Shown: positions 1 through 15,723 of the stretch, piece by piece
Layout: every line of letters begins with the position of its first letter
Position numbering within the stretch: the stretch's first letter is position 1
Origin: Geminicoccaceae bacterium
GTDB lineage: Bacteria > Pseudomonadota > Alphaproteobacteria > Geminicoccales > Geminicoccaceae
Direction of reading: 5' to 3'
Length of the DNA: 64,000 nucleotides
Assembly: GCA_046349395.1 (NCBI GenBank)
Contig: JAXMCK010000004.1
Coordinates: forward strand, 748,173-812,172
Translations under genes and position numbers: made by a program
The notes under the pieces: model-generated
The model's input: only the letters and a program-made list of their open reading frames with translations
The model's database searches: none
What the model was told of the DNA's origin: nothing

Positions 1-1
1 C

Positions 2-2170
2 TTCGTCTACACCATCGTGAAGCATCGCGACCCGGCCCGGATTTACGAAATCTACTTGATGAAGAACCTGACAGGCTTCGACCGGCGAGCCTGGCGGACC
101 GGCTTCACGAACTACCGCTTCGCCATCCCGAGCCTCGCCGGCGGCACCGGCAAGGCGATCTACAACGACGTCGACCAGATCTATTTCGTCGATCCGGCGC
201 TGCTGTTCGACCTCGACCTCGGCGATCACGGCTATCTCGCCATCTCGGCGAAGGACACGTCGGTCATGCTGATCGACTGTACGAAGATGCTGCCGATCTG
301 GAACCGCGAGCGGGCCTCGCACGCACCCAAGCACGAACTGACGAACAAGCCCGCCGACACCCCGGGCTTGTGGGGGCTTCTCGACGGCCACTGGAACGCG
401 CGCGACCTCGAATATGTCGAGGGCCGCACGATGTGCCTGCACTATACGGCCCTGCACCAGCAGCCCTGGCACCCCTTCCCCGGCGCCTTCTCCTACCACC
501 CGAACCCGCTGGCCTATCTGTTCTACGACCTCGAGCGCGAGGCCGACGCGGAAGGCTTCCGCATGTTCGACCGCGAGCGGCCGAGCCCCGGCTTCGACGC
601 GTTGCTGGGCAGCAACCGGCCGCTTGCGACGCCGAAGTCCGCCCCGCTCGACGAGGGTACGCAGCGCCTGCTGGAGGCCATCGGCACGTGGAACGTCACC
701 TACGCCGCGCTCGGTGCGGCACTCGATGCGAAGCTGCCCTTCGCGGCGACGCGGGTCGACCTCGCGCGGAGCCGGGGCCGCCTGCCCGAAGGCAAGGCCG
801 ATGCGGTGATCGCCGCCGGCGTGTTCGAGACGGTGCCGGGTGCCGATATCGAGTGGATCATGGACGAGCTGTTCGCGCACGCGAACAAGGCGGTGGTGGT
901 CAGCATCACCGCCCAGCCCGAGGGTTGGCTCGGCAGTGCCGACTGGTGGCTGCGACGGATCAAGGAGAGCGCCCAGCGCCATCCCGGAATCAGCTGGCGG
1001 CTCGAGGTCGGCGAGCCGCAGGCGACGGGCTCCATCTATGTCCGTGCCACCGAGGTGCGTGCCGTGACGCCGCCCGCGACGCCGCGGGTGTGGGTCGTCA
1101 CCGGCGGCGAGGCAGCGCGCGATGCCGACGCCACGGCCCTCGCGGCAGCCCTGGGCTGGCCGTTCGAGGTGAAGGCGATGGTCTATGGCGGGCTGTCGAT
1201 CCTGCCGAACGCCGTCATCGGCGCCTCGCTGGGCGGCGTGGACAAGGGCGCCTCACCCACGCTGGAGGCACCCTGGCCCGATCTCGTCATCACCTCCGGC
1301 CGCAAGGCGGTGCCGGTCGCCCGCTGGATCCTGGCCCGGGCCGGCAAGCCGGTGAAGCTCGTGCAGCTGGGCCGGCCGGCGGCACCCTTCGACCTGTTCG
1401 ACCTGATCGTGGCACCACCCGAGGAGAAGCTTCCGGAGCGGCCGAACGTCCTGCAGACGCAGGGCCCGCTCGGTGCCGCCGCGATCTCCGCCCGCGGCAC
1501 GTTGCCTGAGGCCGTCGCCAGGCTGCCCCGGCCGCTGACGGCGGTCTTCGTGAGCGAGACCATCGGCCCCTACACGCTGGGCACGGCCGACGCCCACAAG
1601 GTGGGCAGGACCGGTGCCGAGAACGGCGGGTCGGTCGTGGTGTGCGCCGACCAGAGCGTCACCTCGACGACGCTCGATGCGGTACGTGCGGGCGTCGGCG
1701 GTCCGGTCGAGGTCGTGCGCACGCCGACGAGGGAAGACGGGGACGTGCGTGCGGCCCTGCTGGCGGCGGCCGACCGGCTCGTGGTGACGGCGGGCGACAC
1801 GACGACTCTGCTGGCAGCCTCTACCACGGGCAAGCCGGTCACGCTCTACGACCTGCCGCGCTGGTACGAGGCAGCACCCGTGCTGGGCGGGATCGTGAAG
1901 GCCCTGCAGCCGCTCCTGGCCGGCAAGACCTATCGCGGCACGCCGCTGCAGCAGCACATCCCCGGCCGGTTCATCGACTGGCTGGCGACGCGCGGCCTGC
2001 AGCTCCGTCCGCGCAGCCTGGACGAGTTGCACCGCTCGCTGGAGGCCCGGGGTGTGGTCGTGCGCGCCGGGACGAAGGAGCGGGTCGCGCAGCCGAAGCC
2101 GCTGGATGATGCCGCGAGGGTGGCGGCACGCATCCGCCGGATTATGACGGAGCTGCCACAAGCGGGCTAG
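2..2170 (+). CDS. Two-domain putative glycosyltransferase, 5' end outside the window (GT8-like N-terminal part fused to an ELM1/DUF1022-like C-terminal part)
   Basis: The frame is open from base 2 (FVYTIVKHRD...), so the listed GTG at 17 is probably internal. The N-terminal ~190 aa (NDVDQIYFVD, HYTALHQQPWHPF) looks like a retaining GT8-type fold. Residues from about 350 (VWVVTGGEAA...SGRKAVPVARW) resemble the ELM1/DUF1022 family by eye. Confidence 0.55.
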   Translation, partial: FVYTIVKHRDPARIYEIYLMKNLTGFDRRAWRTGFTNYRFAIPSLAGGTGKAIYNDVDQIYFVDPALLFDLDLGDHGYLAISAKDTSVMLIDCTKMLPIWNRERASHAPKHELTNKPADTPGLWGLLDGHWNARDLEYVEGRTMCLHYTALHQQPWHPFPGAFSYHPNPLAYLFYDLEREADAEGFRMFDRERPSPGFDALLGSNRPLATPKSAPLDEGTQRLLEAIGTWNVTYAALGAALDAKLPFAATRVDLARSRGRLPEGKADAVIAAGVFETVPGADIEWIMDELFAHANKAVVVSITAQPEGWLGSADWWLRRIKESAQRHPGISWRLEVGEPQATGSIYVRATEVRAVTPPATPRVWVVTGGEAARDADATALAAALGWPFEVKAMVYGGLSILPNAVIGASLGGVDKGASPTLEAPWPDLVITSGRKAVPVARWILARAGKPVKLVQLGRPAAPFDLFDLIVAPPEEKLPERPNVLQTQGPLGAAAISARGTLPEAVARLPRPLTAVFVSETIGPYTLGTADAHKVGRTGAENGGSVVVCADQSVTSTTLDAVRAGVGGPVEVVRTPTREDGDVRAALLAAADRLVVTAGDTTTLLAASTTGKPVTLYDLPRWYEAAPVLGGIVKALQPLLAGKTYRGTPLQQHIPGRFIDWLATRGLQLRPRSLDELHRSLEARGVVVRAGTKERVAQPKPLDDAARVAARIRRIMTELPQAG

Positions 2171-2285
2171 CTTGTCGCATCGGCGGCAAGTCGCGGCGGT
2201 TGTCGCGGCGCGCCCGCCTGCCTACCTTCCGGGGTCAGAGGGAAACGATCCTCTCTGACCCCTATCCTTTCGAGGTCTTCTCTCG

Positions 2286-3047
2286 ATGCCCCAGCTTTTC
2301 GGGACCTGGTCGGGCCAGAAATATTTCCTGGACAAGATGACCTATCGCGATCTCGTGGTCGCGTTCTTCACCCACTATTCGATCCAGGTCTACCTGCTGG
2401 TCGCGGCACTGGCGATCCTGGCCACGGTCTGGCTGGCGGGTGGCTGGCAGGGTCCGCTGCTGACGGTGGCGGTGGTGCTCGTCGTCTATCCCTTCGCCGA
2501 GTATGTGCTGCACCGCTTCGTGCTGCACGCCCGCTTCCTCTACAAGAGCCCGTACACGGCGAAGGTGTGGAAGCGGATCCACTACGACCACCACCAGAAC
2601 CCACACGATCTCTCGGTCCTGTTCGGGGCCCTCTACACGACCCTGCCGGCCATCGCGCTGGTCTCGATGCCGGTCGGCTGGCTGGTTGCCGGTGCCGCCG
2701 GTGCGACGACGGCGCTGGCGACGGCGGTGATCGTGTTCAGCGTCTACGAGTGGTGCCACTGCGTGCAGCATCTGCCCGTGACGCCGAAGAACACGTGGCT
2801 GCGCGAGATCAAGCGCCGCCACCTCGCCCATCACTTCCACAGCGAGAAGGGCAATTACGGCATCACGTCGGGCTTGTGGGACCGGATCCTCGGCACCTTC
2901 TACGCCGTGCCGAAGGACATGCCGCGCAGCGTGACGGCCTTCAATCTCGGCTACACCGAGGACGAGCGTCGCCGCTATCCCTGGGTCGCCGATCTCTCAG
3001 CCAGCGAGGACGAGTACGCGGTGCGTCGTCACCGTCGGGTCGCCTGA
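2286..3047 (+). CDS. Fatty acid hydroxylase / sterol desaturase family membrane protein
   Basis: Multi-TM protein with the di-iron histidine boxes HRFVLH, HYDHH and HLAHHFH, typical of the FA_hydroxylase superfamily. Confidence 0.75.
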   Translation: MPQLFGTWSGQKYFLDKMTYRDLVVAFFTHYSIQVYLLVAALAILATVWLAGGWQGPLLTVAVVLVVYPFAEYVLHRFVLHARFLYKSPYTAKVWKRIHYDHHQNPHDLSVLFGALYTTLPAIALVSMPVGWLVAGAAGATTALATAVIVFSVYEWCHCVQHLPVTPKNTWLREIKRRHLAHHFHSEKGNYGITSGLWDRILGTFYAVPKDMPRSVTAFNLGYTEDERRRYPWVADLSASEDEYAVRRHRRVA

Positions 3048-3075
3048 CGGGCGACGGCCTGCTACAAGGCGGCCA

Positions 3076-4215
3076 ATGTCCGCCGTCACCATCACCCAGG
3101 TGGCCTCGAAGGGCGATCTCCGCCACTTCCTGACCATGCCGGCAGCGCTCTATGCGGACGACCCCAATTGGGTCCACCCGCTCGTCATGGAGCGGATGGA
3201 CCATCTGAACGCGGCCAAGAACCCGTTCCTCGACGGCATCGACATCGCCTACTTCCTGGCCTGGCGCGATGGCCGCTGCGTCGGCCGGATCAGTGCCCAG
3301 CACGACCGCCCGCATCTCGAGCGGCACAAGGATGCGACCGGCCATTTCGGCTTTTTCGAGGCCGAGGACGATGCCGAGGTCGTCGCCACGTTGCTGCACA
3401 CGGTCGAGGCCTGGCTGCGCGAGCGGGGGCTGCGGCGGCTGACGGGTCCCTTCAGCGTCTCCATCAACGACGAGAGCGGCCTGCTGATCGACGGCTTCGA
3501 CACGCCGCCCAACATGATGATGGGACACCACCGGCGCTACTACGGACCGCGGCTGGAGGAGCAGGGCCTCGTCCCGATCAAGGACCTCATCTGCTACGAC
3601 TTCGACCTGCAGGCCGACTGGCCGCCCAAGGCAAAGCGGATGCTCGACCGGATGCGCAAGCTGCCGGGGCTCCGCGTGCGGCGCATCGACTTCAAGAACC
3701 TCGATGCCGAGCTCGAGCTGCTACGCGACATCTTCAACGACGCCTGGGCGAACAACTGGGGTTTCGTGCCGTTCACGGCGGCGCAGATGCGCTACCTCGG
3801 CAGGAGCATCAAGCCGCTGATCAGCCCGGACTGGATCAGCATCGCCGAGCTCGACGGCGAGCCCGTGGCGATGGTCGTGACCCTGCCCGACCTCAACGAG
3901 GCTATCCGCGACCTGAACGGGCGCCTGCTGCCCTTCGGCTGGGCAAAGCTGCTCTGGCGGCTCAAGGTGAAGGGCGTCTCCACCGGCCGCATGCCGCTGA
4001 TGGGCGTGCGTCGCCGGTTCCACGACAGCCCGAAGGGTGCCGCCCTCGCCCTTTCGGTCATCGAGGCGGCCCGCGATTTCCACGCCGCCCAGGGGCGCAA
4101 GCACGGCGAGCTGTCCTGGGTGCTGGCCGACAACCGGCGCATGCGGGACATCATCGAGGCCGTGGGCGGCGTGCCCAACAAGACCTATCGCGTCTACGAG
4201 AAGGCGATCGCCTGA
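3076..4215 (+). CDS. Large GNAT-like acyltransferase (candidate bacterial ceramide synthase by context)
   Basis: 379 aa with the N-terminal motif FLTMPAALYADDPNWVHPL, seen in a conserved alphaproteobacterial N-acyltransferase family. The functional suggestion rests on clustering with spt/acp/reductase/ligase. Confidence 0.55.
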   Translation: MSAVTITQVASKGDLRHFLTMPAALYADDPNWVHPLVMERMDHLNAAKNPFLDGIDIAYFLAWRDGRCVGRISAQHDRPHLERHKDATGHFGFFEAEDDAEVVATLLHTVEAWLRERGLRRLTGPFSVSINDESGLLIDGFDTPPNMMMGHHRRYYGPRLEEQGLVPIKDLICYDFDLQADWPPKAKRMLDRMRKLPGLRVRRIDFKNLDAELELLRDIFNDAWANNWGFVPFTAAQMRYLGRSIKPLISPDWISIAELDGEPVAMVVTLPDLNEAIRDLNGRLLPFGWAKLLWRLKVKGVSTGRMPLMGVRRRFHDSPKGAALALSVIEAARDFHAAQGRKHGELSWVLADNRRMRDIIEAVGGVPNKTYRVYEKAIA

Positions 4216-4979
4216 TGGCGGCGTTCACGGCCCTCGTCCTGGCCGGCAGCCGACGCGGGGAGACCGACAGCGTCGCGATGCACGCGGGTGTCAAGCACAA
4301 GAGCTTGGCGCCCGCCGGCGGCGTGCCGATGCTGACCCGCGTGGTCGACAGCCTGCGCCAGAGCCCCAGCGTCGGGCGCATCCTGGTCTGTGCCGAGGAC
4401 CGTGGACTTGTCACCACGGCCGCACCGGGCACCGACTTCTTCCCGGCCGAGGGCTCGCCCAGCCGCAGCGTCGGCTCGGCACTCCGGTCGGTGACACCTC
4501 CCCTTCTGGTCACCACCTCCGATCACGCCCTGCTGACCCCGGCGATGGTCGAGACCTTCTGTACCGCTGCCAGCGCCTCGGGTGCCGACGTCGCCGCCGG
4601 TGTCGCCGCCTCGGCCACGATCCGCGCCGCCTATCCCGATGCGGTGCGGACCTTCTGGCGCTTCCGCGACGAGGCCTATTCGGGTGCCAACCTGTTCGCC
4701 CTGATGTCGAAGGGTGCCGAGCCTGCCGTCTCGTTCTGGCGGCGTGCCGAAGACGAGCGCAAGCGCCCGTGGCGCATCGTTCGCATTCTCGGCGTCGACA
4801 ATCTGCTGCTCTATCTCTGCCGGCTGCTGACGCTGCAGCAGGCGTTCGCCCGGCTGTCGCGCCGGCTGAAGGTGAGGATCGCCCCCATCGTGCTGCCCTT
4901 CGCGGAGGCCGCCATCGACGTCGACAAGCCCACCGACCTCGATCTCGCCAACTCGATCCTGGCCCGGCGGGCCGCCTGA
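4215..4979 (+). CDS. MobA-like nucleotidyltransferase family protein
   Basis: The ATG at 4215 overlaps the upstream TGA (TGATG). The N-terminus ALVLAGSRRG...LAPAGGVPML is the NTP-transferase G-rich loop. It occupies the distal part of the 3168..4979 ORF; the upstream part of that ORF is a shadow of the GNAT gene. Confidence 0.6.
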   Translation: MAAFTALVLAGSRRGETDSVAMHAGVKHKSLAPAGGVPMLTRVVDSLRQSPSVGRILVCAEDRGLVTTAAPGTDFFPAEGSPSRSVGSALRSVTPPLLVTTSDHALLTPAMVETFCTAASASGADVAAGVAASATIRAAYPDAVRTFWRFRDEAYSGANLFALMSKGAEPAVSFWRRAEDERKRPWRIVRILGVDNLLLYLCRLLTLQQAFARLSRRLKVRIAPIVLPFAEAAIDVDKPTDLDLANSILARRAA

Positions 4980-4987
4980 GGCAGCTC

Positions 4988-5932
4988 TTGTTCCGCCTCG
5001 CCCATCTCACCGACCTTCATCTGGGCCCCATGCCCAGGGCGGCCCCGCGCGAGCTCTTCAATCAGCGTGTGCTGGGCTATCTTTCCTGGCGGCGGCGCCG
5101 TTACCGCGTCCACCGGCGCGAGGTGCTGGATGCGCTCGTCGCCGACCTGCGCGAGCAGTCGCCCTCGCACGTCGCCGTCACCGGCGATCTCGTGAACATC
5201 TCCCTGCCGGCAGAGTTCGTGCAGGCAAGGGTGTGGCTCGACGAGCTCGGCAGCCCGGACTGGGTCACTGTCGTGCCGGGCAACCATGACGCCTACATCA
5301 CGGTCCGCTGGAACGACGCCCTGCGCAACTGGGCCGAGTACATGTGCGGGGACGACGGCGATCCCGGGCACGAGAGCCGCTACTTCCCGTTCCTGCGCCG
5401 CCGCGGCGACGTGGCGCTGATCGGCCTCTCGACCGCGATCGCCACACCGCCCACCTTCGCCACCGGCCGCCTCGGGCCGTCGCAGCTCGCCTCGCTGGAG
5501 CGGATGCTGGCGAACCTCGAGGGCAGCGGGCTCTGCCGGGTCGTGCTGCTGCACCACCCTCCTGTGCCGACCATGACGGACTATCGCCGTAGGCTGGTCG
5601 ACGACGAGGCGTTCTGCGCCCTGATCCGCCGGCATCCGGTCGAGCTCGTGCTCTGCGGACATCAGCACATCTTCCAGCTCGGCGAGATCAGGACCGCAGC
5701 CGGCAGCGTTCCCGTCGTCGGAGGGCCCTCCGCCTCGCTGCACGGAGGCGATCGCAACTACGAGGGAGGCTATCTTCTGTTCGACTTGGAACGCCTGCGG
5801 GACATCTGGCAGATCCGCCTGGAACTGCGCCGCTATGACGGGGCGACCGGCAGGTTCGGCTCCGTGTTGACCCGGCAACTCGGCGAGCGGACGGCGGGCA
5901 AGCCCGCCCTCGCGACGGCCGGCACGGCCTGA
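4988..5932 (+). CDS. Metallophosphoesterase (calcineurin-like)
   Basis: Motifs HLTDLHLG, TGDLVN, GNHD and LLHHPP...CGHQH are present. The start is assigned to the in-frame TTG at 4988 just before the first motif. The start is uncertain. Confidence 0.7.
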   Translation: MFRLAHLTDLHLGPMPRAAPRELFNQRVLGYLSWRRRRYRVHRREVLDALVADLREQSPSHVAVTGDLVNISLPAEFVQARVWLDELGSPDWVTVVPGNHDAYITVRWNDALRNWAEYMCGDDGDPGHESRYFPFLRRRGDVALIGLSTAIATPPTFATGRLGPSQLASLERMLANLEGSGLCRVVLLHHPPVPTMTDYRRRLVDDEAFCALIRRHPVELVLCGHQHIFQLGEIRTAAGSVPVVGGPSASLHGGDRNYEGGYLLFDLERLRDIWQIRLELRRYDGATGRFGSVLTRQLGERTAGKPALATAGTA

Positions 5933-5958
5933 CGATCTACCGGCGCCGGGCGAAAGAG

Positions 5959-7134
5959 ATGTCGACCTACAGCCGCTATCTCCTGGGTCTCGTCGCCAGG
6001 CCCATGCTGACGACGATCCTGGTCGCACTGGTGGCTCTGCTCGCCGAGCGCATGCTGCGGGTGGTCGATCTGGTCGTCGACTGGCGCGGCAACCTCACGC
6101 TCGTCTTCGAGATGCTGGGTTACCTCGTCCCGCACTATATGGGGCTGGCGCTTCCGGTCGCGTTCTTCCTCGGCATCCTGCTCACCTTCTCCAGGCTGTC
6201 GAAGGAAGGCGAGCTGTCGGCGATGTACGCCTCGGGCGTGGGCCTCGTGCAGCTCGTCCGCCCGCTCGTGGTCGCCGGCTTCGTGCTGGCGCTGGCGACG
6301 GGTATCCTGATGAGCCACATCCAGCCCTATGCCCGCTATGCCTACCGGGCGGCGGTGAACATCCTGACCAGCGCCTCCTTCCAGCAGCTGCTGCAGGACG
6401 GGATCTTCACGACGGTCGGCCGGGCCACCTACATGGTCGACAAGCTCTCCGCCGACAAACACGGGCTCAACGGCGTCTTCATCCATTCGCTGGAGGCGAA
6501 CGGCGACTCGGCGACGATTACCGCCAAGACCGGCACGATCGACCAGCAGGCGCAGACCGACCCCCTGCTCCTGCACCTGCAGAACGGCGTGCAGCAGCTG
6601 CTGCAGCCGTCGGGTGACGAGCTGGTCGTGCGCTTCCGCAACTTCGAGACGACGTTCCGCGGTGCCGACGCCATGGGCGCACGCGGCACCAACGAGCGCG
6701 AGATGACCCTACCGGAGCTGTGGTCCATTCGCGACGAGGAGCTCCCGCCGGGCGTCGAACGGTCAGAGGTCACGGCCGAGCTGGACGGGCGCCTCGCCCG
6801 CATCCTGGCCCTTCCCGTCCTGCCCTTCCTGGCGGTGCCGCTGGCGATCGGCGGGCAACGCGGGCAGCGCTCCTACGGGCTCGTGATCGGCCTCGCCCTG
6901 CTCGTCGCCTTCCACCACGCGCTGCAGCTCGGCGAGTCGATGGTGGACGACGGCAAGATCCCCGCCCTGCTCGGAATCTGGCTGCCGTTCGGCGTGCTCT
7001 GCCTGTTCGCGATCGGCCTGTTCTTCCGCGCCGCGACACGGGTACCGGATCCGCGGCGCTGGTCGAGGGTCGACCGGGTCGTCGACGCCGTCGTCGCCCT
7101 CCTCCGTCGCCTCCGGCCGACGCCGGCGACATGA
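5959..7134 (+). CDS. lptF: LPS export ABC transporter permease LptF
   Basis: LptF/LptG (YjgP/YjgQ) family. It has the N-terminal YLL...L..L..ER signature, six TM segments and a periplasmic insert, and sits first in a coupled pair. Confidence 0.75.
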   Translation: MSTYSRYLLGLVARPMLTTILVALVALLAERMLRVVDLVVDWRGNLTLVFEMLGYLVPHYMGLALPVAFFLGILLTFSRLSKEGELSAMYASGVGLVQLVRPLVVAGFVLALATGILMSHIQPYARYAYRAAVNILTSASFQQLLQDGIFTTVGRATYMVDKLSADKHGLNGVFIHSLEANGDSATITAKTGTIDQQAQTDPLLLHLQNGVQQLLQPSGDELVVRFRNFETTFRGADAMGARGTNEREMTLPELWSIRDEELPPGVERSEVTAELDGRLARILALPVLPFLAVPLAIGGQRGQRSYGLVIGLALLVAFHHALQLGESMVDDGKIPALLGIWLPFGVLCLFAIGLFFRAATRVPDPRRWSRVDRVVDAVVALLRRLRPTPAT

Positions 7135-8234
7135 GCGTCATCGGCCGCTACCTGAACCGCATGTTCTTCGCCCGGCTGGCCGTCGTGGGCTTCGCCGTGC
7201 TGGGCTTCGCCACCGTGCTGGACCTCGTCGACGTCGTCGACGACCTCGCCGTCTCGCCGGACGGGCCGCTGCTCGCCGGCCTGCGCTACATCGCCCTGCG
7301 GCTGCCGTTGATGATCTCCGAACTGCTGCCGATCTGCGCCCTCGTGGCGGGCCTGCTCATGGTGGGCGACCTGATGCGGCACCGCGAGCTCGCGGTGCTC
7401 TGGGGCTCGGGCATCACGCCGTTCCAGCTCATGAGCTTTCTGGTCCCGGCGATCCTGATCCTGATCGGCCTACGCCTCGTGGTCGAGGACCGTGCGGTGC
7501 CCTATGCCGCGCAGCAGCTGCGGGCCTGGGGTATCGGCGACTTCAAGCACCATGCCGAGGAGGGCGAGGCCGGCGGCTTCTACTGGCTGCGCAACGGCAA
7601 CGACGTGATCCGGCTGTCGGCGAACGCCGTTTCCGCTGGCGAACTGGTGGAGCTGACCATCTTCGACCGCGACCAGGAGGGCCTTCTCCTCGAGCGCATC
7701 GATGCGAAGGAGGCACAGGCCGTTCCCGACGGCATCGTGCTGATCGACGTGGTCCGTCGCACGGTGGGAGCCGGCCGGGCGGAGAAGCTCGACCAGCTGT
7801 TCTGGCCGGCACCGATCGACGTCAATCGCGTCGCCCTGCTGGCACGCCCCGCACGCGAGCTCAGCCTCGGCGAGCTGGTCGAGGTGCTGCGCGCGGGGGC
7901 TTACGGCATGCGGGCCGACGAGCCCTATGCCACCTGGCTGCACCTGCGGATCGCCGGCTCGCTGGTGCCGCCGCTGCTGCTGCTCGTGGCGGTAGGCCTC
8001 GCCCGGCGGTTCGAGCGCACGGGCAGCATCGCTCCGGTGTTCGTCACGGCGGTGGCGACCGGCTTCACCTTCCTCATCCTGGGCGGCGTGCTCAGCGCGC
8101 TCGGTGAGGTCGGTATCGTGCCACCCGTTCTCGCGGCCTGGCTGCCGACGCTGGGACTGGCGGTCCTCGTCTTCTTCCTGGCCCAGGGGCGGCATCGCCT
8201 GCGCGCGGTGCCCGCCACCTGGCGGACGGCATGA
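7131..8234 (+). CDS. lptG: LPS export ABC transporter permease LptG
   Basis: The ATG at 7131 overlaps the lptF stop (ATGA). The sequence IGRYLNRMFFARL...LRLPLMISELLPI is typical of the LptF/G family. Confidence 0.75.
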   Translation: MSVIGRYLNRMFFARLAVVGFAVLGFATVLDLVDVVDDLAVSPDGPLLAGLRYIALRLPLMISELLPICALVAGLLMVGDLMRHRELAVLWGSGITPFQLMSFLVPAILILIGLRLVVEDRAVPYAAQQLRAWGIGDFKHHAEEGEAGGFYWLRNGNDVIRLSANAVSAGELVELTIFDRDQEGLLLERIDAKEAQAVPDGIVLIDVVRRTVGAGRAEKLDQLFWPAPIDVNRVALLARPARELSLGELVEVLRAGAYGMRADEPYATWLHLRIAGSLVPPLLLLVAVGLARRFERTGSIAPVFVTAVATGFTFLILGGVLSALGEVGIVPPVLAAWLPTLGLAVLVFFLAQGRHRLRAVPATWRTA

Positions 8235-9199
8235 GCCACGTCCACGGTCGCATCGGCCTGATCAGCAATCCGAAGAGTGGCGGCTATGTCCGCTCGCGGG
8301 CGGCACTCGACCGGCTGCTGCCGGGCATGCCGGAGATCCTGGATCGCGAGCTGACCTCCGACAGCGCGCTGCCGGACCTCATGGACGACCTCGCCGCGGC
8401 GGGCATCGAGGTGCTGATCGTGAACGGAGGCGACGGGACCGCCATGCGCATCCTCTCGGCACTGTTCGAAAGCAGGGCCTTCACCACCCTCCCGGCGGTG
8501 GCCCTGCTGCAGGGCGGCACGGCCAACATGACGGCGGCCGATCTCGGCGCCCGCGGCGCCCCGGCCCGTGCGGTGGTTCGCATCCTGGAGCGGCTGCGCT
8601 CCGGCAAGCTGCAGGAGCACCTCATCGATCGCCCGGTGCTGAAGGTCGACAATATCCTGTCCCATGCCCCGATGCGGGGCTTCTTCTTCGGTCTCGCCGG
8701 CATCGTCGACTCGATCCGGCTCTGTGCGACCGATTTCATCAGCCGCGGCATCGGGGGCGAGATCGCCCATTTCGGCACGCTTCTCACCTTCCTGACCCGG
8801 GCGGCGGTGCGCGGACCGGCCAATGCCGGCATCGGCGGCCTTGAAGTCGAGGTGCGGTTTCCGGACGCTCCGGGCTTCGCCGGCCAGCAACTCCTACTTT
8901 TCGCCAGCACGCTGGACCGGCTGGTGCTGCGCTCGAAGCCCTTCTGGGGCGAGGGCGACGGACCGGTCCACCTGACCTCCGTCGCCCAGGGCGCCCCGCG
9001 CCCGCTGCTCGCCGTGCCGCGGGCCCTGCTGGGTCTGGGTAGGGGTCTGCCCAGGAAGCACTATCGCAGCGTGCGCACCGTGCGCGCCGAGCTTCGCTTC
9101 GACGGACCCTTCACGATCGACGGCGAGTTCTTCCATGCCGGCGCCGGCCGGCCCCTGATCGTCAGCGCCGATGAGCGCCTCCGCTTCGTCCATTTCTGA
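8231..9199 (+). CDS. Diacylglycerol-kinase-like lipid kinase (candidate ceramide kinase by context)
   Basis: DAGK catalytic-domain signature LISNPKSGG...VNGGDGT. The start overlaps the lptG stop. Confidence 0.7.
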   Translation: MSHVHGRIGLISNPKSGGYVRSRAALDRLLPGMPEILDRELTSDSALPDLMDDLAAAGIEVLIVNGGDGTAMRILSALFESRAFTTLPAVALLQGGTANMTAADLGARGAPARAVVRILERLRSGKLQEHLIDRPVLKVDNILSHAPMRGFFFGLAGIVDSIRLCATDFISRGIGGEIAHFGTLLTFLTRAAVRGPANAGIGGLEVEVRFPDAPGFAGQQLLLFASTLDRLVLRSKPFWGEGDGPVHLTSVAQGAPRPLLAVPRALLGLGRGLPRKHYRSVRTVRAELRFDGPFTIDGEFFHAGAGRPLIVSADERLRFVHF

Positions 9200-10097
9200 G
9201 GCGGTGCCGCCGCTGGAGCGGCTGGTCGCCGTGGAGATGTTGCGACCGGTGTCGCAAGACGCTCACGCCTTAGCCGAGGCGGCACGGCTCCGGCACGGGC
9301 CGGCGGTGGCGGCCGTGCTCTTCTACGGCAGCTGCCTGCGCGAGGACCCGTCCGGCTCCGACCGGATGCTCGACCTCTATCTGCTCGTCGACAGCTATGC
9401 CCGGGTTGAGCCGCGGCCGCTCCTGGCGCGGCTGGCTCGACTGCTGCCGCCCAACGTCCACTATGTCGAGACACCGCTCGACGGGCGGACGGTCAGGGCC
9501 AAGTACGCGATCGTCGAGACGGACCAACTCACGCGGCTGGCGGCGGACGGTGCTGACGAGTCCTACTTCTGGGGTCGGTTCGCCCAACCGGTGCGGCTCG
9601 TCTGGTCGCGCGACGAGGCCGCCAGGGTAGCGGCAGAGACCATCGTCGCGACCTCCGTCCGCACCTTCCTCGGCGAGGCGCTACCCTTGCTGCCTCCGGG
9701 CGCGGGTTCGGACGAGGTCTGGGCGCACGCCCTTTCTCTCAGCTATGGCAGCGAGCTTCGCTCGGAACGTCCTGGCAAGGCGCAAGCCATCGTCGCGGCC
9801 GAGCCGGAGCGATATGCGGCGATGCTCGACGCCTATCGCGCCGAGGGTCACCCTGCTCTATCTGCGGCGGTCACCGCGGCCCGTTGGCGACGGCGCCGAC
9901 GGCGCGGCAAGCTGCGCTCGGTGCTGCGGCTGATGAAGGCGGCCTTCACCTTCGACGGCGGAGCGGACTATCTGGCATGGAAGATCGGCCGCCACTCGGG
10001 TGTGCGGATCGAGGTCACCGACTGGCAGCGCCGGCACCCGATACTGGCGGCACCCTTCCTCTATTTCCGGCTTTACCGGGCAGGTGCGTTCCGCTGA
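9171..10097 (+). CDS. Hypothetical protein, possible Tam41/Mmp37-like nucleotidyltransferase fold
   Basis: FYGSCLRE..(9)..MLDLYLLVD followed by PPNVHYVETPLDGRTVRAKYAIVETDQL resembles by eye the Tam41 pattern YGSGVF...MIDFIF.V ... G..IKYGVV..DDL. The start is uncertain because it overlaps the upstream gene by 29 nt. Confidence 0.45.
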   Translation: MSASASSISEAVPPLERLVAVEMLRPVSQDAHALAEAARLRHGPAVAAVLFYGSCLREDPSGSDRMLDLYLLVDSYARVEPRPLLARLARLLPPNVHYVETPLDGRTVRAKYAIVETDQLTRLAADGADESYFWGRFAQPVRLVWSRDEAARVAAETIVATSVRTFLGEALPLLPPGAGSDEVWAHALSLSYGSELRSERPGKAQAIVAAEPERYAAMLDAYRAEGHPALSAAVTAARWRRRRRRGKLRSVLRLMKAAFTFDGGADYLAWKIGRHSGVRIEVTDWQRRHPILAAPFLYFRLYRAGAFR

Positions 10098-10107
10098 GCG
10101 CGACCGC

Positions 10108-11319
10108 TCAGGCGGCGGCCGCCGGCTGCAGATCCGCCAGGACGGCACGGAACTTGTCGACCGCCTCGGCGATCTGCGCCGGCTCGTGCGCGGCCGAGAC
10201 GCTGCAGCGCAGGAGCGAGGCACTGTTCGGCGTGCCGGGCGGCAGCGCCAGATTCACGTAGATTCCTCGCTGCAGCAGCATGTGCCACGCGGCAACGGCC
10301 GTGTTCTCGTCGGGCATCCGCACCGCCACGATCGGCCCCGGCGGTGCGCCGAGTTCCAGGCCCAGCGAGCCCAGGCCCTCGTGGAGCAGGCGCCCGTTCG
10401 CCTGGACCCGGCGCGTCAGATCGGGTGTCGCCTCGATCGTCGACAGCGTGGCCAGCACGGAGGCGACCCCGGCGGGGCTCGGCGAGGCCGTGAACATGTA
10501 GGGCCGGCTGCACACGCGCAGCAGGTCGAAGCCCGGATGGTCGGACGCGGCGAACCCGCCGATCGCCCCAAGGCTCTTGCTGAAGGTGCCGACCACGAAA
10601 TCGACCTCGGCCTCGACCCCCTGCGCCTCGGCGAGGCCGCGGCCGTGCTCGCCGTAGCAGCCGAAGGAGTGCGCCTCGTCGACCAGCAGCCACGCCCCGT
10701 GTTTCTGCTTCACCTCGACGAACTCGGGCAGCGGGGCGGTGTCGCCCAGCATGCTATAGAGGCCCTCGACGATGACGAGGCAGCAGTCGAACTCGCCCTT
10801 CATCCGGGCGAGACGGCGGTCGAGGTCGGCCGGATCGTTGTGCCTGAACCGGACGACCGTAGCCCCGCTCAGCCGGCAGCCGTCATAGATGCTGGCATGC
10901 GAGTCGGCATCGAGCAGGATCAGGTCCTTGGCCCCGGCGAGCCCGGCGATGGTGCCCAGATTGGCCTGGTAGCCGGTCGAAAAGACGATGGCAGAGCGGC
11001 GATGCAGGTGACGCTCGAACGCCTTCTCCAGGTCGCGATGCAGGCCGTAGGTGCCGTTCGCGATGCGCGAGCCCGTGGTGCCGGTGCCGAAATCGTGCAG
11101 GGCGCGAGTGGCGGCGTCGATGGCACCCTGGTCGAAGGTCAGACCCAGATAGTTGTTGGTGCCGAGCAGGATCGTGTGCCGGCCGCCGATCAGCGCCTCC
11201 GTCGGCGAGATCAGCTTCTCCATCTCGACGCCGAAGGGATTGATGCCGGCACCGAGCACCGTCTGCCGACGCTGGGCGATGGCTGAATACTTGTCGAAAA
11301 TGTCCATCGTTCGGCTCAC
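10108..11319 (-). CDS. spt: Serine palmitoyltransferase (alpha-oxoamine synthase family)
   Basis: PLP-dependent AOS family: NNYLGL, STGYQANLG, DEAHS, and the TFSKSLG lysine motif. It lies directly downstream of a dedicated ACP with a 4-nt overlap. Confidence 0.85.
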   Translation of the reverse strand: MSRTMDIFDKYSAIAQRRQTVLGAGINPFGVEMEKLISPTEALIGGRHTILLGTNNYLGLTFDQGAIDAATRALHDFGTGTTGSRIANGTYGLHRDLEKAFERHLHRRSAIVFSTGYQANLGTIAGLAGAKDLILLDADSHASIYDGCRLSGATVVRFRHNDPADLDRRLARMKGEFDCCLVIVEGLYSMLGDTAPLPEFVEVKQKHGAWLLVDEAHSFGCYGEHGRGLAEAQGVEAEVDFVVGTFSKSLGAIGGFAASDHPGFDLLRVCSRPYMFTASPSPAGVASVLATLSTIEATPDLTRRVQANGRLLHEGLGSLGLELGAPPGPIVAVRMPDENTAVAAWHMLLQRGIYVNLALPPGTPNSASLLRCSVSAAHEPAQIAEAVDKFRAVLADLQPAAAA

Positions 11320-11567
11320 TTCGTCGAGACGCGCTCGGCAACGACGGCGGCAAGATCGCCTATCGTCAGGATTTCGCTGACACGGTTCAATGGAATATCG
11401 ATCTCGAACCTGTCTTCGACCTCCATAATGATGTCCATGGCGGCCGTCGAATCGATGCCGAGATCGTCGGTGAAATGCGTGCCGGCTTCGAGCGGCCGGT
11501 CGCTCCGATTGTAGCGCCCGACGATCTCGCGCACACCGTCCAGCACCGATTGCGCCTGCCCGGCCAT
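11316..11567 (-). CDS. Acyl carrier protein
   Basis: 83 aa with the phosphopantetheine attachment motif DLGIDSTAAMD. Confidence 0.8.
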   Translation of the reverse strand: MAGQAQSVLDGVREIVGRYNRSDRPLEAGTHFTDDLGIDSTAAMDIIMEVEDRFEIDIPLNRVSEILTIGDLAAVVAERVSTK

Positions 11568-11590
11568 CTACGCCGCTCCCTTACGGCCGC

Positions 11591-12535
11591 TCAGCCGCGG
11601 ATCCACCCGGCCGAGCGATACCATTCGAGCGTGGCGGGAAAGCCGTCCGCGAACGTCGTCCAGGCCCTCCACCCCTCGATCGCCCCACCTCGGGCGATCC
11701 AGTCGGGATGGAACAGCTCGGCCAGCTTGCCGCGATTGATGAGGGAACTCCGTCCCGCCACTCTGCTGCCCGCTTCTATCACGGTAGCGGCGGCATCGGC
11801 GAGCACCCGTGAGAGCGGCAACACGCGTACCCGGCGCTGCAGGCTGTCCGCCGCGATGGTGGCGAGGTCGCGCCAGCCATAGCCGCCGGGCCGCCCGTCG
11901 TCGGGCTCGATGGGCGCTTCCGGCATCTCCTTGAAGCTCAGGAGGCCGACCATGAGCTGCGCCAGATCGTCGACGAAGATGAGGGAGAAGCGCGCCTCGG
12001 GGCTCGACGGTGCCACGAGGAAGCCGTGCGCCAGTTGCCGGAACATGGGCAGCGTGGCGCGGTCGCCGGGTCCGTAGACCGCGGGCGGCCGGACGATCGC
12101 CACGTCGAGTCCGGGCCGCAGCGAAGCAACGAGCGCTTCCGCCGCAGCCTTGCTGGAGGCGTAGGGCGACAGCGCCGGGGTGCGAGCGGCGAGCGACGAG
12201 ACGAGGACGAAGCGGCTGATGCCGGCATCCATGGCCGCGGCTGCGACCCGCCGGGTCCCCGCGACGTTGATCGACTCGAACCGGGCGGCATTCGGGGCCA
12301 GCACGGCGCCGGCGGCGTGAATGATGCCGCAGGTCCCGGCGACGAGGCGCTTCAGCGCGTCGACGTCGTCGAGATCGCCCTGGACCTGCGCGACGTCCGC
12401 GGCGGCCAGAGCCTTGTCCTGACGCCGGACGAGTGCCCGCACCCGGTAGCCCGATGCCTGCAGGGCAGGAACGAGGCGGCGCCCGATGAAGCCCGTGGCT
12501 CCGGTGAGCGCCACGACACCGGAGTGCGGCGGCAT
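11591..12535 (-). CDS. NAD(P)-dependent epimerase/dehydratase-family reductase (candidate ceramide/3-ketosphinganine reductase by context)
   Basis: Rossmann motif TGATGFIGRRL. It lies between the acyl-AMP ligase and the ACP in the spt operon. Confidence 0.7.
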   Translation of the reverse strand: MPPHSGVVALTGATGFIGRRLVPALQASGYRVRALVRRQDKALAAADVAQVQGDLDDVDALKRLVAGTCGIIHAAGAVLAPNAARFESINVAGTRRVAAAAMDAGISRFVLVSSLAARTPALSPYASSKAAAEALVASLRPGLDVAIVRPPAVYGPGDRATLPMFRQLAHGFLVAPSSPEARFSLIFVDDLAQLMVGLLSFKEMPEAPIEPDDGRPGGYGWRDLATIAADSLQRRVRVLPLSRVLADAAATVIEAGSRVAGRSSLINRGKLAELFHPDWIARGGAIEGWRAWTTFADGFPATLEWYRSAGWIRG

Positions 12536-12548
12536 CGGTGCGTTCCGG

Positions 12549-14276
12549 TCAGGAAGGGGCGGCGGAGAGCTGCGGCGGCACCGCAGGAACGAGGTCGACC
12601 GGGCCGTGATCGAGGTCAGTGATGCGGCCGGCCAGCAGCGCGTCGCGCACCGCCGAGCGGCTGAGCTTGCCCGAGGTCGTGTAAGCGAGGCTGCGCGGGG
12701 CGGCGAGGATCACCTCGCAGTCCACACCCGAGCTGCGCCGCACCTGGCCCGCGACCTCGCGGCGCAGCAGGTCGCGGTCGGTCGCGTCCTGGCGGCGGCA
12801 CTCGACCACCAGCATGACCCGCTCCGCACCCTCCTCGTCGGGCACGGCGAAGGCGGCGGTGTCGCCGACGCGCACACCCTCGACCTGCTCGGCCGCCCAT
12901 TCGAGGTCCTGCGGCCAGATGTTGCGGCCACCGACAATGATGAGGTCCTTGTAACGGCCGGTGACAACGAGCTCGCCGCCGATCATGTAGCCGAGATCGC
13001 CCGTGTCGAGCCAACCTTCGCGGACCAGCGGTGCGCGGCTCAGATGCGGGAAGCGGAAATAGCCGTTCATCAGGCTCGGGCCGCGGACGAAGATCCGCCC
13101 CACCGAGCGGTCGTCCATCGGCTCCCCGTCGCCCGAGCGGATCTCGATCTCGTAGCCCGGCAGCGGCTTGCCGCAGAGCGTGAAGCCGGCACTGCCCGGC
13201 GCTTCCATGTCGCTGCGGATGCCGCGGCCGAGCGGGCTCATGGTCACCGCCAGCGTCGCCTCGGCGAGGCCGTAGCTCGGCAGGAAGGCGCCGGAGCTGA
13301 AGCCGACCGGCGCGAAGCGCTCGGCGAAGCTCGCCAGCACCTGCGGGCGGATCATCTCGGCACCGATTCCGGCGACGCGCCAGCGGCTGAGGTCGAGATC
13401 GGGAAGTGCCGTCTCGCCGGCGCGGCGCGCGCAAAGCGAATAGCCGAAGGTCGGCGAGAAGGAGATGGTACCGCCCTGCTCGGAGAGCATCCGCAGCCAG
13501 ACCAGCGGGCGGCGCGCGAAGCTCGCGGTGGCGAGGTAGTCGACCGAGAGTTGGGCCAGCATCGGGGTGATGCAGCAGCCGACGAGGCCCATGTCGTGGT
13601 ACAGCGGCAGCCATGTCGTGCAGCGATCGCCCGGGCGCAAGGCGACGCCGTCGCGCCCGATCGCCGTCGCGTTGGCGAGCACCGCCTGCTGGCTGACGAG
13701 GACACCGCGCGGCAGGCTGGTGCTGCCGGACGAATACTGGATGTAGCAGGGCTCGTGCGCCTGTAGCGGGCGCAGGGCGCCGTCGCCGGCCGCCATCGCC
13801 ATGAAGTCGTCGAGGGTGCCGACGAGGCCGATGCCGACGCGCGCGGCGGCCAAGGTCACGCTGTCGCGCAGGTCGGCCGGGCCGATCGCGGCACACGCAC
13901 CGGCGGCTTCCAGCATGCCGGCGAGCCGCGCCTCGTACGCCTCGCGGCCGCCGAAGTTCACGCAGAGCGGCAGCGGGACGGGCAGCAGGCCGGCATACTG
14001 GCAGCCGAAGAAGGCGACCATGAAGTCCGGGCCGGTCTCGGCGATGATCCCCACGCGCTCGCCGCGACCTAGCCGCGCGCCGACGAGGCGTACCGCCAGA
14101 TCCTGGGCGCGCTGGCGCAATTCGGCGTAGGGCAGCACCGTCTCGACGCTGCCTCGGGCACCGAAGAAATTGAAGCCCGTCTCGCCCTGCGCTGCGTAGT
14201 CGAGGCCGTCGACCAGCGTCGCTGCGCCACCCATCCGAAAGGGCAGTGCTGTATTGAAGGTTGGCGTTCCCGACAT
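12549..14276 (-). CDS. Fatty acyl-AMP ligase / acyl-ACP synthetase-type adenylating enzyme
   Basis: AMP-binding motifs YIQYSSGSTSLPRGV, GYGLAE and TGDLGY. It is the first gene of the minus-strand spt operon. Confidence 0.85.
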   Translation of the reverse strand: MSGTPTFNTALPFRMGGAATLVDGLDYAAQGETGFNFFGARGSVETVLPYAELRQRAQDLAVRLVGARLGRGERVGIIAETGPDFMVAFFGCQYAGLLPVPLPLCVNFGGREAYEARLAGMLEAAGACAAIGPADLRDSVTLAAARVGIGLVGTLDDFMAMAAGDGALRPLQAHEPCYIQYSSGSTSLPRGVLVSQQAVLANATAIGRDGVALRPGDRCTTWLPLYHDMGLVGCCITPMLAQLSVDYLATASFARRPLVWLRMLSEQGGTISFSPTFGYSLCARRAGETALPDLDLSRWRVAGIGAEMIRPQVLASFAERFAPVGFSSGAFLPSYGLAEATLAVTMSPLGRGIRSDMEAPGSAGFTLCGKPLPGYEIEIRSGDGEPMDDRSVGRIFVRGPSLMNGYFRFPHLSRAPLVREGWLDTGDLGYMIGGELVVTGRYKDLIIVGGRNIWPQDLEWAAEQVEGVRVGDTAAFAVPDEEGAERVMLVVECRRQDATDRDLLRREVAGQVRRSSGVDCEVILAAPRSLAYTTSGKLSRSAVRDALLAGRITDLDHGPVDLVPAVPPQLSAAPS

Positions 14277-15712: not shown

Positions 15713-15723
15713 CCGTCCGGGAC

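Follow-up and report, generated by a model that had tools for sequence, protein, structure and literature searches.

A putative sphingolipid synthesis and export locus with the only LptF-LptG pair of a Geminicoccaceae genome that has lost lipid A genes

Within a 64,000-nucleotide stretch of DNA (hereafter the window), we found a 13-gene cluster for bacterial sphingolipid synthesis and export (Table 1), hosted by a member of the Geminicoccaceae rather than by Caulobacter or Sphingomonas. We consider it probable that the cluster forms a self-contained module by which a bacterium no longer making lipid A synthesises a sphingolipid, tailors its head group and exports the product. Gene identities, conserved gene order, a sole LptFG pair, deletion of lipid A genes and clade membership were observed directly, and the LptF and LptG proteins of the window would most likely export the sphingolipid, not lipopolysaccharide (LPS). 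The embedding of lptF-lptG among sphingolipid genes, which a sequence-only reading had singled out, is already published (Olea-Ozuna 2024, PMC11324152; Uchendu 2026, preprint 10.64898/2026.04.12.717747), with C. crescentus, S. wittichii and Azotobacter among the bacteria that show it (same sources). What is added here is a Geminicoccaceae host in which lipid A genes have been deleted and the locus pair is the sole LptFG.

Gene content and conservation of the cluster

Every gene listed in the sequence-only reading was recovered, at the same position and on the same strand. The gene set matches the published one, upholding the view of a Caulobacter-type sphingolipid (ceramide) locus with lptF-lptG embedded in it, and we take the cluster, from its sequence, to be a real sphingolipid synthesis and export locus of the type already described in Caulobacter and Sphingomonas. 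The same 13-gene order was retained in at least eight sampled Geminicoccaceae genera (g3, g4, g12, g14, g20, g22 and g23, plus further MAGs) and thus does not reflect a chance neighbourhood, while the same core genes also flank the LptFG of Sphingomonadales and Kordiimonas.

Table 1. Features of the sphingolipid locus, in window coordinates
Feature	Position	Strand	Evidence
Fused putative glycosyltransferase	1..2170	+	GT8-like N-terminal, middle alpha/beta and C-terminal ELM1/GtrOC1-family GT-B domains
Terminator-like hairpin	2231..2262	+	12-bp stem then T-rich tail; between glycosyltransferase and hydroxylase genes
Membrane fatty-acid hydroxylase-superfamily enzyme (FA_hydroxylase)	2286..3047	+	PF04116, 5e-21; hydrophobic segments
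GNAT-type acyltransferase	3076..4215	+	Weak Pfam matches: Acetyltransf_6, E 0.005; Acetyltransf_1, 0.011
MobA/CofC-like nucleotidyltransferase (NTP_transf_3)	4215..4979	+	PF12804, 1.9e-13
Calcineurin-like metallophosphoesterase, cytoplasmic	4988..5932	+	PF00149, 2e-14; no TM segment; N-terminal DLHLG motif
LptF-family permease	5959..7134	+	PF03739, 8e-66; TIGR04407, 235.7 bits (cut-off 230)
LptG-family permease	7131..8234	+	PF03739, 6e-50; TIGR04408, 189 bits (under cut-off 240)
DAG-kinase-fold lipid kinase (DAGK_cat)	8231..9199	+	PF00781, 1.5e-10; YegS alignment shows NGGDGT and GTAN motifs
Tam41-fold nucleotidyltransferase, 308 aa	9171..10097	+	Predicted fold; NTase motif
Serine palmitoyltransferase (SPT)	10108..11319	-	NF047599, 602 bits (cut-off 500)
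Dedicated acyl carrier protein (ACP), AcpR-like	11316..11567	-	PF00550, 1.8e-10; DS phosphopantetheine motif
NAD(P)-dependent epimerase/dehydratase-family reductase, CerR-like	11591..12535	-	PF01370, 1.8e-27; GATGFIG motif
Fatty acyl-AMP ligase (FAAL)/acyl-ACP synthetase, AasR-like	12549..14276	-	NF006624, 722.6 bits (cut-off 600)

The alpha-oxoamine synthase proved to be an SPT, scoring 421 and 414 bits against the SPT sequences of PDB entries 2x8u and 2jg2 (the former being the S. wittichii enzyme), compared with 212 bits for KBL and 167 for BioF. Its gene overlaps that of the ACP by 4 nt. On the plus strand, the GNAT stop and nucleotidyltransferase start overlap as TGATG, the predicted overlap between lptG and the kinase gene (ATGA, 8231-8234) was confirmed and a second ATGA joins lptF to lptG (7131-7134), and the kinase and cpgC-like genes share 29 nt.

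Every enzymatic step, as well as the product and transported substrate, is suggested by homology with enzymes characterised in Caulobacter and Sphingomonas. FAAL would charge the dedicated ACP with a fatty acid, SPT would join the acyl chain to serine, and N-acylation by the GNAT together with reduction by CerR would yield dihydroceramide, to which the membrane hydroxylase may add a hydroxyl group. The DAGK-fold kinase would then make ceramide-1-phosphate, and the Tam41-fold and MobA-like nucleotidyltransferases with the metallophosphoesterase would build a phosphate-linked (phosphoglycerate-type) head group, probably extended by the fused GT8-like/ELM1-GtrOC1 glycosyltransferase. Export would fall to LptF and LptG, whose genes are coupled in translation with one another and with that of the kinase. 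Together they would make up the membrane component of an extractor of the LptB2FG type, which with LptB and LptD would deliver the completed sphingolipid to the outer membrane.

The LptF-LptG pair and the loss of lipid A genes

Only two PF03739 matches were detected in the host genome, both within the window, making this its sole LptFG pair. LpxC, LpxB, LpxK and Kdo transferase were not found in the genome. In an LPS-positive relative (G058) the genes run bamA-skp-lpxD-fabZ-lpxA-lpxI-lpxB-gltA, whereas the collinear stretch on host contig C11 reads bamA-skp-fabZ-gltA, with lpxD, lpxA, lpxI and lpxB cleanly absent; given this collinearity, these four genes were deleted rather than lost in an assembly gap. 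Approximately half of the 29 sampled Geminicoccaceae genera are without lipid A genes, and parsimony on an RpoB tree of these genera required at least five changes of lipid A gene state. The sequence-only reading aptly pointed out that sphingolipids can make up for a loss of lipid A; such a loss seems to have occurred naturally here.

In a joint tree of LptF and LptG, both halves split deeply into two clades. Clade 1 (support 100) held all LPS-positive genomes without SPT and the second pair of four-copy genomes, and clade 2 (support 99 for LptF, 80 for LptG) held the window pair, the Sphingomonadales pair and every SPT-encoding genome that the tree includes. On the TIGR models the window pair reaches 236 and 189 bits, compared with 243-270 bits for the canonical pair of the family. 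Since this is the only LptFG pair, in a genome without lipid A genes and in a clade shared with Sphingomonadales, its members are best read as sphingolipid exporters.

That the pair is instead an ordinary LPS exporter, merely located among and co-transcribed with sphingolipid genes, is extremely unlikely. LptF does pass the TIGR04407 equivalog cut-off narrowly (235.7 versus 230 bits) and some LPS-positive relatives have no LptFG pair of any other type, but LptG falls under its own cut-off (189 versus 240 bits), the pair is placed outside the canonical clade, and the host lacks detectable LpxC, LpxB, LpxK and Kdo transferase; with the clean collinear deletion of lpxD, lpxA, lpxI and lpxB, such a role is strongly disfavoured. 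The name of LPS-transport genes given to the pair by the sequence-only reading does not hold in this genome, which has no lipid A pathway and whose only LptFG groups with the sole LptFG of Sphingomonadales, outside the canonical clade. Compared with the canonical LPS extractor LptB2FG (E. coli/Enterobacter, PDB 6MIT), the window proteins share the PF03739 family and six-TM topology, and LptD is present in the host, but the host has no genes for a lipid A substrate and the pair lies in a separate clade.

A broader role is also conceivable, in which clade-2 LptFG, the phosphoesterase and the fused glycosyltransferase make and export outer-membrane glycolipids in general, having replaced canonical LptFG in the family, with the sphingolipid as one cargo among others. 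Several LPS-positive genomes (g13, g23, g28 and part of g11) carry a clade-2 pair only, which makes strict sphingolipid specificity of clade-2 LptFG improbable; G012, G058, G051 and G034 are LPS-positive genomes of this kind, although MAG incompleteness could account for some of these cases. The genes for glycosyltransferase, phosphoesterase, LptF and LptG are moreover the most conserved sub-module, intact in g26, where spt lies elsewhere, and in g9, a genus lacking both SPT and lipid A genes that keeps the sub-module at the same chromosomal site beside an AI-2E transporter gene. We nonetheless regard this role as unlikely, since, both here and across at least eight sampled genera, the module is flanked by genes for ceramide synthesis and ceramide kinase whose reading frames overlap, and clade 2 tracks SPT across the genomes of the tree with g9 as the sole sampled exception.

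For export of the sphingolipid, LptB would also be needed by the extractor; it was not found in the host assembly (best match 40% identical), though six lipid-A-less relatives encode it at 350 bits or more. Because rpoN and genes neighbouring the relatives' lptB are likewise missing, and the assembly is rated 90.2% complete, this absence is probably a gap. Pfam searches of the host genome returned no LptC or LptA match.

Head-group genes and comparison with known loci

One of the nearest known counterparts of the locus is the sphingolipid region of S. wittichii (Swit_3897-3908), an organism without LPS whose sole LptFG lies beside spt and which lacks LpxC, LpxB and WaaA (preprint 10.64898/2026.04.12.717747). 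Both regions hold SPT, ACP, CerR, CpgC and CpgB counterparts, LptF/LptG and bCerS, both LptFG pairs are the only ones of their genomes, and LpxC, LpxB and WaaA are absent from both, despite the two hosts belonging to different taxonomic orders. LptF and LptG of Sphingomonadales MAGs fall in the same clades as the window pair, and their loci share the hydroxylase, GNAT and nucleotidyltransferase genes. In the Sphingomonadales MAG loci examined, however, lptF is divergent from the genes for the kinase and CpgC, whereas in the window the latter two follow lptG with overlapping frames, and the metallophosphoesterase and fused glycosyltransferase were not seen there.

With C. crescentus (CC_1152-CC_1168: spt, acpR, cerR, aasR, bcerS, cpgA-D and lptF2/G2/C2), the locus shares the five genes for ceramide formation, a Tam41-like CpgC and a ceramide kinase beside spt, and an internal MobA-like nucleotidyltransferase, metallophosphoesterase and LptF/LptG pair, counterparts being assigned by family, fold and published description. 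The Caulobacter LptF2/LptG2 bind LptB and are needed when the anionic sphingolipid is made (preprint 10.64898/2026.04.12.717747). C. crescentus keeps LPS and a canonical LptFG, its locus pair being a second copy, whereas the host of the window has no other pair and no longer carries lipid A genes; the window locus also lacks CpgA, CpgD, LptC2, the Wzx-like flippase and the HIT gene, but additionally encodes the hydroxylase and fused glycosyltransferase.

Several head-group enzymes can be matched tentatively. The DAG-kinase-fold protein is a candidate ceramide kinase resembling Caulobacter CpgB, which has that activity (PMC10331486, PMC9393093). No Pfam match was obtained for the 308-residue protein at its 3' side, and sequence profiles could not show Tam41 likeness, but the name was borne out by fold: in an AlphaFold model (pLDDT 89.1) the two best PDB matches were Tam41 structures (7ecd, E 1.5e-7, and 6ig4). 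An NTase motif, YGS...D.D, shows no variation among 24 orthologues, and the model suggests a CpgC-like nucleotidyltransferase. The MobA/CofC-like nucleotidyltransferase is likely the counterpart of CC_1153, a MobA/CobY/CofC-like protein required for ceramide diphosphoglycerate (CPG2), on the basis of published domain descriptions. The metallophosphoesterase belongs to the same family as CC_1158, and wherever a related locus examined here carries its gene, that gene immediately precedes lptF.

These counterparts of CpgB, CpgC, CC_1153 and CC_1158 might point to a product identical to Caulobacter CPG2, yet we judge this very unlikely: neither a CpgA-type CDP-alcohol phosphotransferase nor a CpgD-type cytidylyltransferase was found within the locus, the genome's extra CDP-alcohol transferases, including the closest candidate, resemble PssA-type phospholipid enzymes, and neither the conserved fused glycosyltransferase nor the hydroxylase is listed for the Caulobacter locus.

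Sequence and position make the GNAT a candidate bacterial ceramide synthase (bCerS), with orthologues at the same cluster position that include Sphingomonadales and Kordiimonas loci (324-541 bits). The hydroxylase, whose gene adjoins the GNAT gene in Sphingomonadales loci too, may act as a ceramide acyl 2-hydroxylase or as a long-chain-base hydroxylase/desaturase.

The glycosyltransferase gene is cut by the left edge of the window; its start lies approximately 150 bases upstream, the full product being 773 aa as judged by orthologues, in all of which a conserved N-terminal 70 residues are encoded upstream of window base 59. Its description as a two-domain glycosyltransferase stands clearly for the C-terminal 360 residues, which match PF06258 (3e-30) and adopt a GT-B fold with structural matches to EarP, CalG1, MurG and MGD1, while the GT8-like N-terminal match is weak (E 0.03-0.04), yet in register with the profile. 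NCBI names the orthologues 'ELM1/GtrOC1 family putative glycosyltransferase'. GtrOC1 is an Acinetobacter lipooligosaccharide outer-core enzyme. Like ELM1/GtrOC1 enzymes in its C-terminal half, the window protein differs from them in being fused behind highly conserved GT8-like and middle domains, and in being encoded within a sphingolipid locus whose host genome lacks LPS.

Gene content and predicted product of the locus

Open reading frame listing and profile searches recovered every gene that the sequence-only reading had named in the locus (Table), along with the ATGA shared by the lptG and kinase frames at 8231-8234, which lies just where that reading had placed it. The lptF and lptG frames likewise share an ATGA, the GNAT stop and NTase start join as TGATG, and the kinase and 308-aa genes overlap by 29 nt and spt and acp by 4 nt.

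Genes of the sphingolipid locus, with positions in the window, strand and supporting evidence
Gene	Position	Strand	Evidence
Fatty-acid hydroxylase	2286-3047	+	
GNAT	3076-4215	+	weak profile matches, E 0.005 and 0.011
MobA-like nucleotidyltransferase (NTase)	4215-4979	+	
Metallophosphoesterase	4988-5932	+	
LptF	5959-7134	+	
LptG	7131-8234	+	
DAGK-fold kinase	8231-9199	+	PF00781 at 1.5e-10; NGGDGT and GTAN motifs
308-aa Tam41-like protein	9171-10097	+	fold match
Serine palmitoyltransferase (SPT)	11319-10108	-	NF047599, 602 bits
ACP	11567-11316	-	PF00550
Epimerase-family reductase	12535-11591	-	PF01370 at 1.8e-27; sits between ACP and FAAL genes
Fatty acyl-AMP ligase (FAAL)	14276-12549	-	NF006624, 722 bits

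The bacterial sphingolipid pathway has been worked out since 2019-2021, and the locus represents a compact, well-conserved further example of it. The pathway that it would encode is deduced from homology and from work on Caulobacter. Its assignment to sphingolipid synthesis was borne out by the identification of the SPT, ACP, FAAL and reductase gene set. The alpha-oxoamine synthase reached 602 bits with the SPT model, whose cut-off is 500, compared with 321 for bioF and 291 for KBL, and in comparison with PDB entries it matched the S. wittichii SPT (2x8u) at 421 bits, far above KBL (212) and BioF (167), so that a KBL or BioF identity, raised as the alternative in the sequence-only reading, is ruled out. 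The spt operon holds its own ACP and FAAL, and the epimerase/dehydratase-family reductase is assigned on sequence, at family level, as CerR-type. Profile matches of the GNAT, a candidate ceramide synthase (bCerS), were weak; its orthologues are conserved at the position held by Swit_3908/bCerS beside LptFG in Sphingomonadales loci.

Among the head-group genes, the DAGK-fold kinase beside spt is the likely counterpart of Caulobacter CpgB and a putative ceramide kinase. The 308-aa protein that follows it had no significant match in Pfam or PDB profile searches; its structural model (pLDDT 89) has Tam41 as its two best PDB fold matches, in agreement with the Tam41-like label it had been given earlier, and on this model it is predicted to be a Tam41-like CpgC counterpart. 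In the synthesis of ceramide diphosphoglycerate (CPG2), the Caulobacter end product, CpgA adds the second phosphoglycerate. A CpgA-type CDP-alcohol phosphotransferase was not found in the locus, nor was a counterpart of CpgD, and the MobA/CofC-like NTase agrees with the description of CC_1153, unlike CpgD, a phosphoglycerate cytidylyltransferase. With neither CpgA nor CpgD represented in the locus, and with a conserved hydroxylase and fused glycosyltransferase in their stead, the head group is probably unlike that of CPG2.

Of the four PF01066 matches in the genome, two that adjoin each other on contig C4 were compared further, one being PssA-like and the other small. C4:993-995 kb was discarded as a CpgA candidate on account of this PssA-like character. 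These two neighbouring CDP-alcohol phosphatidyltransferase genes lie at G000:C4:992933-994993 in the source assembly (6934-8994 of the extracted locus L084); the first is the PssA-like one by PDB comparison, and the ORF as called probably extends too far at its long N-terminus.

The glycosyltransferase gene at the left edge is cut by the window. It has a full length of 773 aa, because the conserved 70-residue N-terminus of its orthologues is encoded upstream. A GT8-like N-terminal domain (weak support) and a middle domain precede a clear GT-B domain at the C-terminus, which is assigned to the ELM1/GtrOC1 glycosyltransferase family from its PF06258 score (105.8 bits, cut-off 27) and the Foldseek GT-B matches of its predicted structure (E 1e-7 to 1e-5). 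As the genes further upstream (an AI-2E transporter, dehydrogenases and imuB/dnaE2) are unrelated to the locus, we take the glycosyltransferase gene as its left border. Between this gene and that of the hydroxylase, at 2231-2262, lies a strong hairpin of 12 pairs (8 G-C) followed by a T-rich tail, which points to separate transcription of the glycosyltransferase gene. On the other side of the locus, and unrelated to it, a sugar-type ABC importer (periplasmic binding protein, ATPase and two permeases) occupies window 14576-19240, divergent from the FAAL-spt operon.

Type and number of LptF/LptG pairs

LptF and LptG sequences (51 each) were placed in one tree, the LptF part serving to root the LptG part and vice versa, and each part divided into two deep clades. 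Clade 1, the canonical type, comprised all genomes with LPS genes but without SPT, together with the second pair of three four-copy genomes (G005, G010 and G031), each of which thus carries one pair of either clade. The window pair fell in clade 2, as did all SPT-positive genomes in the tree, the genus coded g9, and the pairs of Sphingomonadales and Kordiimonas. Clade-1 proteins clear both NCBIfam equivalog cut-offs, with the canonical Geminicoccaceae pairs at 243-270; the window LptF scored 235.7 on TIGR04407, barely above the cut-off of 230, and the window LptG scored 189 on TIGR04408, below the cut-off of 240. The closest relatives of the window LptF are from Geminicoccaceae, namely Benzoatithermus flavus (60% identity) and several MAGs of the family. 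Because the pair falls in clade 2, and only its LptF passes the equivalog cut-off, and that barely, we assign it by sequence to the sphingolipid-locus type. Across the whole assembly there are just two LptF_LptG matches, both inside the window, making this the sole LptFG pair of the genome. The sequence-only reading had taken the two permeases for LPS exporters; that view is rejected, given a sole pair in clade 2, an LptG under its cut-off and the missing lipid A genes.

In Caulobacter, the region CC_1152-CC_1168 carries spt, acpR, cerR, aasR, bcerS, cpgA-D and second copies of LptF, LptG and LptC, and similar clusters occur in Hyphomonas, S. wittichii, Zymomonas, Nitrosomonas, Azotobacter and Pseudomonas luteola (PMC11324152). 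Caulobacter tolerates loss of LptF2/LptG2 only if it makes no anionic sphingolipid, and the two proteins bind LptB; S. wittichii has its sole LptFG beside spt, and Sphingomonas is without LpxC, LpxB and WaaA (preprint 10.64898/2026.04.12.717747). Like LptF2/LptG2, the window pair sits inside a sphingolipid locus and belongs to a lineage distinct from canonical LptFG, and it falls in clade 2 together with the Sphingomonadales pairs. Through the published homology of the S. wittichii pair, it may further be linked to CCNA_01214/CCNA_01213. The embedding of lptFG in a sphingolipid locus, which had been put forward as notable, is therefore already published (PMC11324152; preprint 10.64898/2026.04.12.717747).

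The 13-gene order recurs across many genera, with or without LPS genes, and runs glycosyltransferase, hydroxylase, GNAT, NTase, phosphoesterase, LptF, LptG, kinase and Tam41-like protein, followed by the convergent SPT-ACP-CerR-FAAL operon. Its most stable sub-module is glycosyltransferase-phosphoesterase-LptF-LptG. This sub-module stays together in genus g26, where spt lies elsewhere, and in g9, where spt and lpx genes are both absent, and for this reason we retain, beside the sphingolipid-locus assignment favoured by the placement of every SPT-positive genome in clade 2, a rival reading in which clade-2 LptFG are not strictly specific for sphingolipid.

Lipid A genes and other Lpt components in the source genome

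The source assembly (5.19 Mb, 20 contigs, 90.2% complete) yielded no LpxC, LpxB, LpxK or Kdo transferase. In the LPS-positive relative G058 the gene order is bamA-skp-lpxD-fabZ-lpxA-lpxI-lpxB-gltA, and contig C11 of the source genome reads bamA-skp-fabZ-gltA. As the two are collinear except for the missing lpx genes, lpxD, lpxA, lpxI and lpxB are truly lost, with no assembly gap.

LptD is encoded in the genome, and LptC and LptA had no Pfam match in it beyond the LptD N-terminus. LptB was not found in the 20 contigs by TIGR model or tblastn, nor do these contigs contain rpoN or the other lptB neighbours seen in relatives. Since six lipid-A-less relatives (G011, G018, G023, G025, G044 and G059) keep LptB, at 350+ bits, and the flanking rpoN region is missing as well, the absence of lptB probably reflects an unassembled region rather than loss. 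A search for MsbA gave a best homologue of 501 bits, under the cut-off of 602, and none in the locus. This best MsbA-like ABC exporter, at G000:C4:1031690-1033402 and unlinked to the locus, is a candidate sphingolipid flippase.

Distribution across the Geminicoccaceae

A survey of 61 Geminicoccaceae genomes from 29 genera found 14 genera, that of the window included, to be without LpxB and Kdo transferase. In four of these (g4, g14, g22 and g26) an LpxC-like sequence persists that is weak, truncated or split (E 1e-42 to 1e-66; for example G025:C142:58014-58562 and G030:C33:28374-29156), perhaps as a relic or as a pseudoenzyme with a new role. A further 8-9 genera, among them that of Geminicoccus roseus DSM 18922, combine LPS genes with clade-1 LptFG alone and are without SPT, and the rest have both LPS and SPT pathways, with both LptFG pairs or clade 2 only. 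Under parsimony on an RpoB tree, lipid A state changed at least five times, a provisional count from a single-gene quick tree.

To our knowledge, Sphingomonas is, laboratory mutants aside, the main Gram-negative in which sphingolipid replaces LPS, and the first experimental work on sphingolipid transport to the outer membrane that we know of dates from 2026. The literature searched held no paper tying Geminicoccaceae to sphingolipids or lipid A loss. The natural loss of lipid A in this family alongside a sole sphingolipid-type LptFG, apparently a repeated event, is the part worth pursuing. We lean slightly towards the wider reading that Geminicoccaceae are a second alphaproteobacterial lineage, after Sphingomonadales, in which some members are without lipid A and would rely on sphingolipids carried by LptF2G2, that lipid A was lost several times independently after clade-2 LptFG had displaced the canonical pair, and that the fused glycosyltransferase and phosphoesterase, constant companions of lptFG, would build an undescribed head group. 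By gene content, this one family spans LPS only, both lipids with one or two LptFG pairs, and sphingolipid only, and it has cultured members in Geminicoccus roseus, Benzoatithermus flavus, Arboricoccus pini and possibly strain 1502E. Of these, Benzoatithermus flavus SYSU G07066 and Geminicoccaceae bacterium 1502E have the cluster but no lpx genes. The family thereby offers a natural series for studying which Lpt components carry sphingolipid, which changes precede lipid A loss, and what role the glycosyltransferase-phosphoesterase pair plays.

Two further gene complements were recorded during the survey. G012, a genome of genus g13 (100% complete, 5 contigs), encodes LpxC, LpxB, Kdo transferase and SPT, and the sole LptFG pair found in it is of clade 2; LptB was not among the matches listed for it. 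Genus g9 (G033 and G008, the latter with extracted locus L072 at G008:C191:1-16000) is without LpxC, LpxB and Kdo transferase and has no SPT above cut-off. Its only LptFG pair still lies with the phosphoesterase, the fused glycosyltransferase and the AI-2E transporter gene, in an unchanged chromosomal position (compare window 1-8234).
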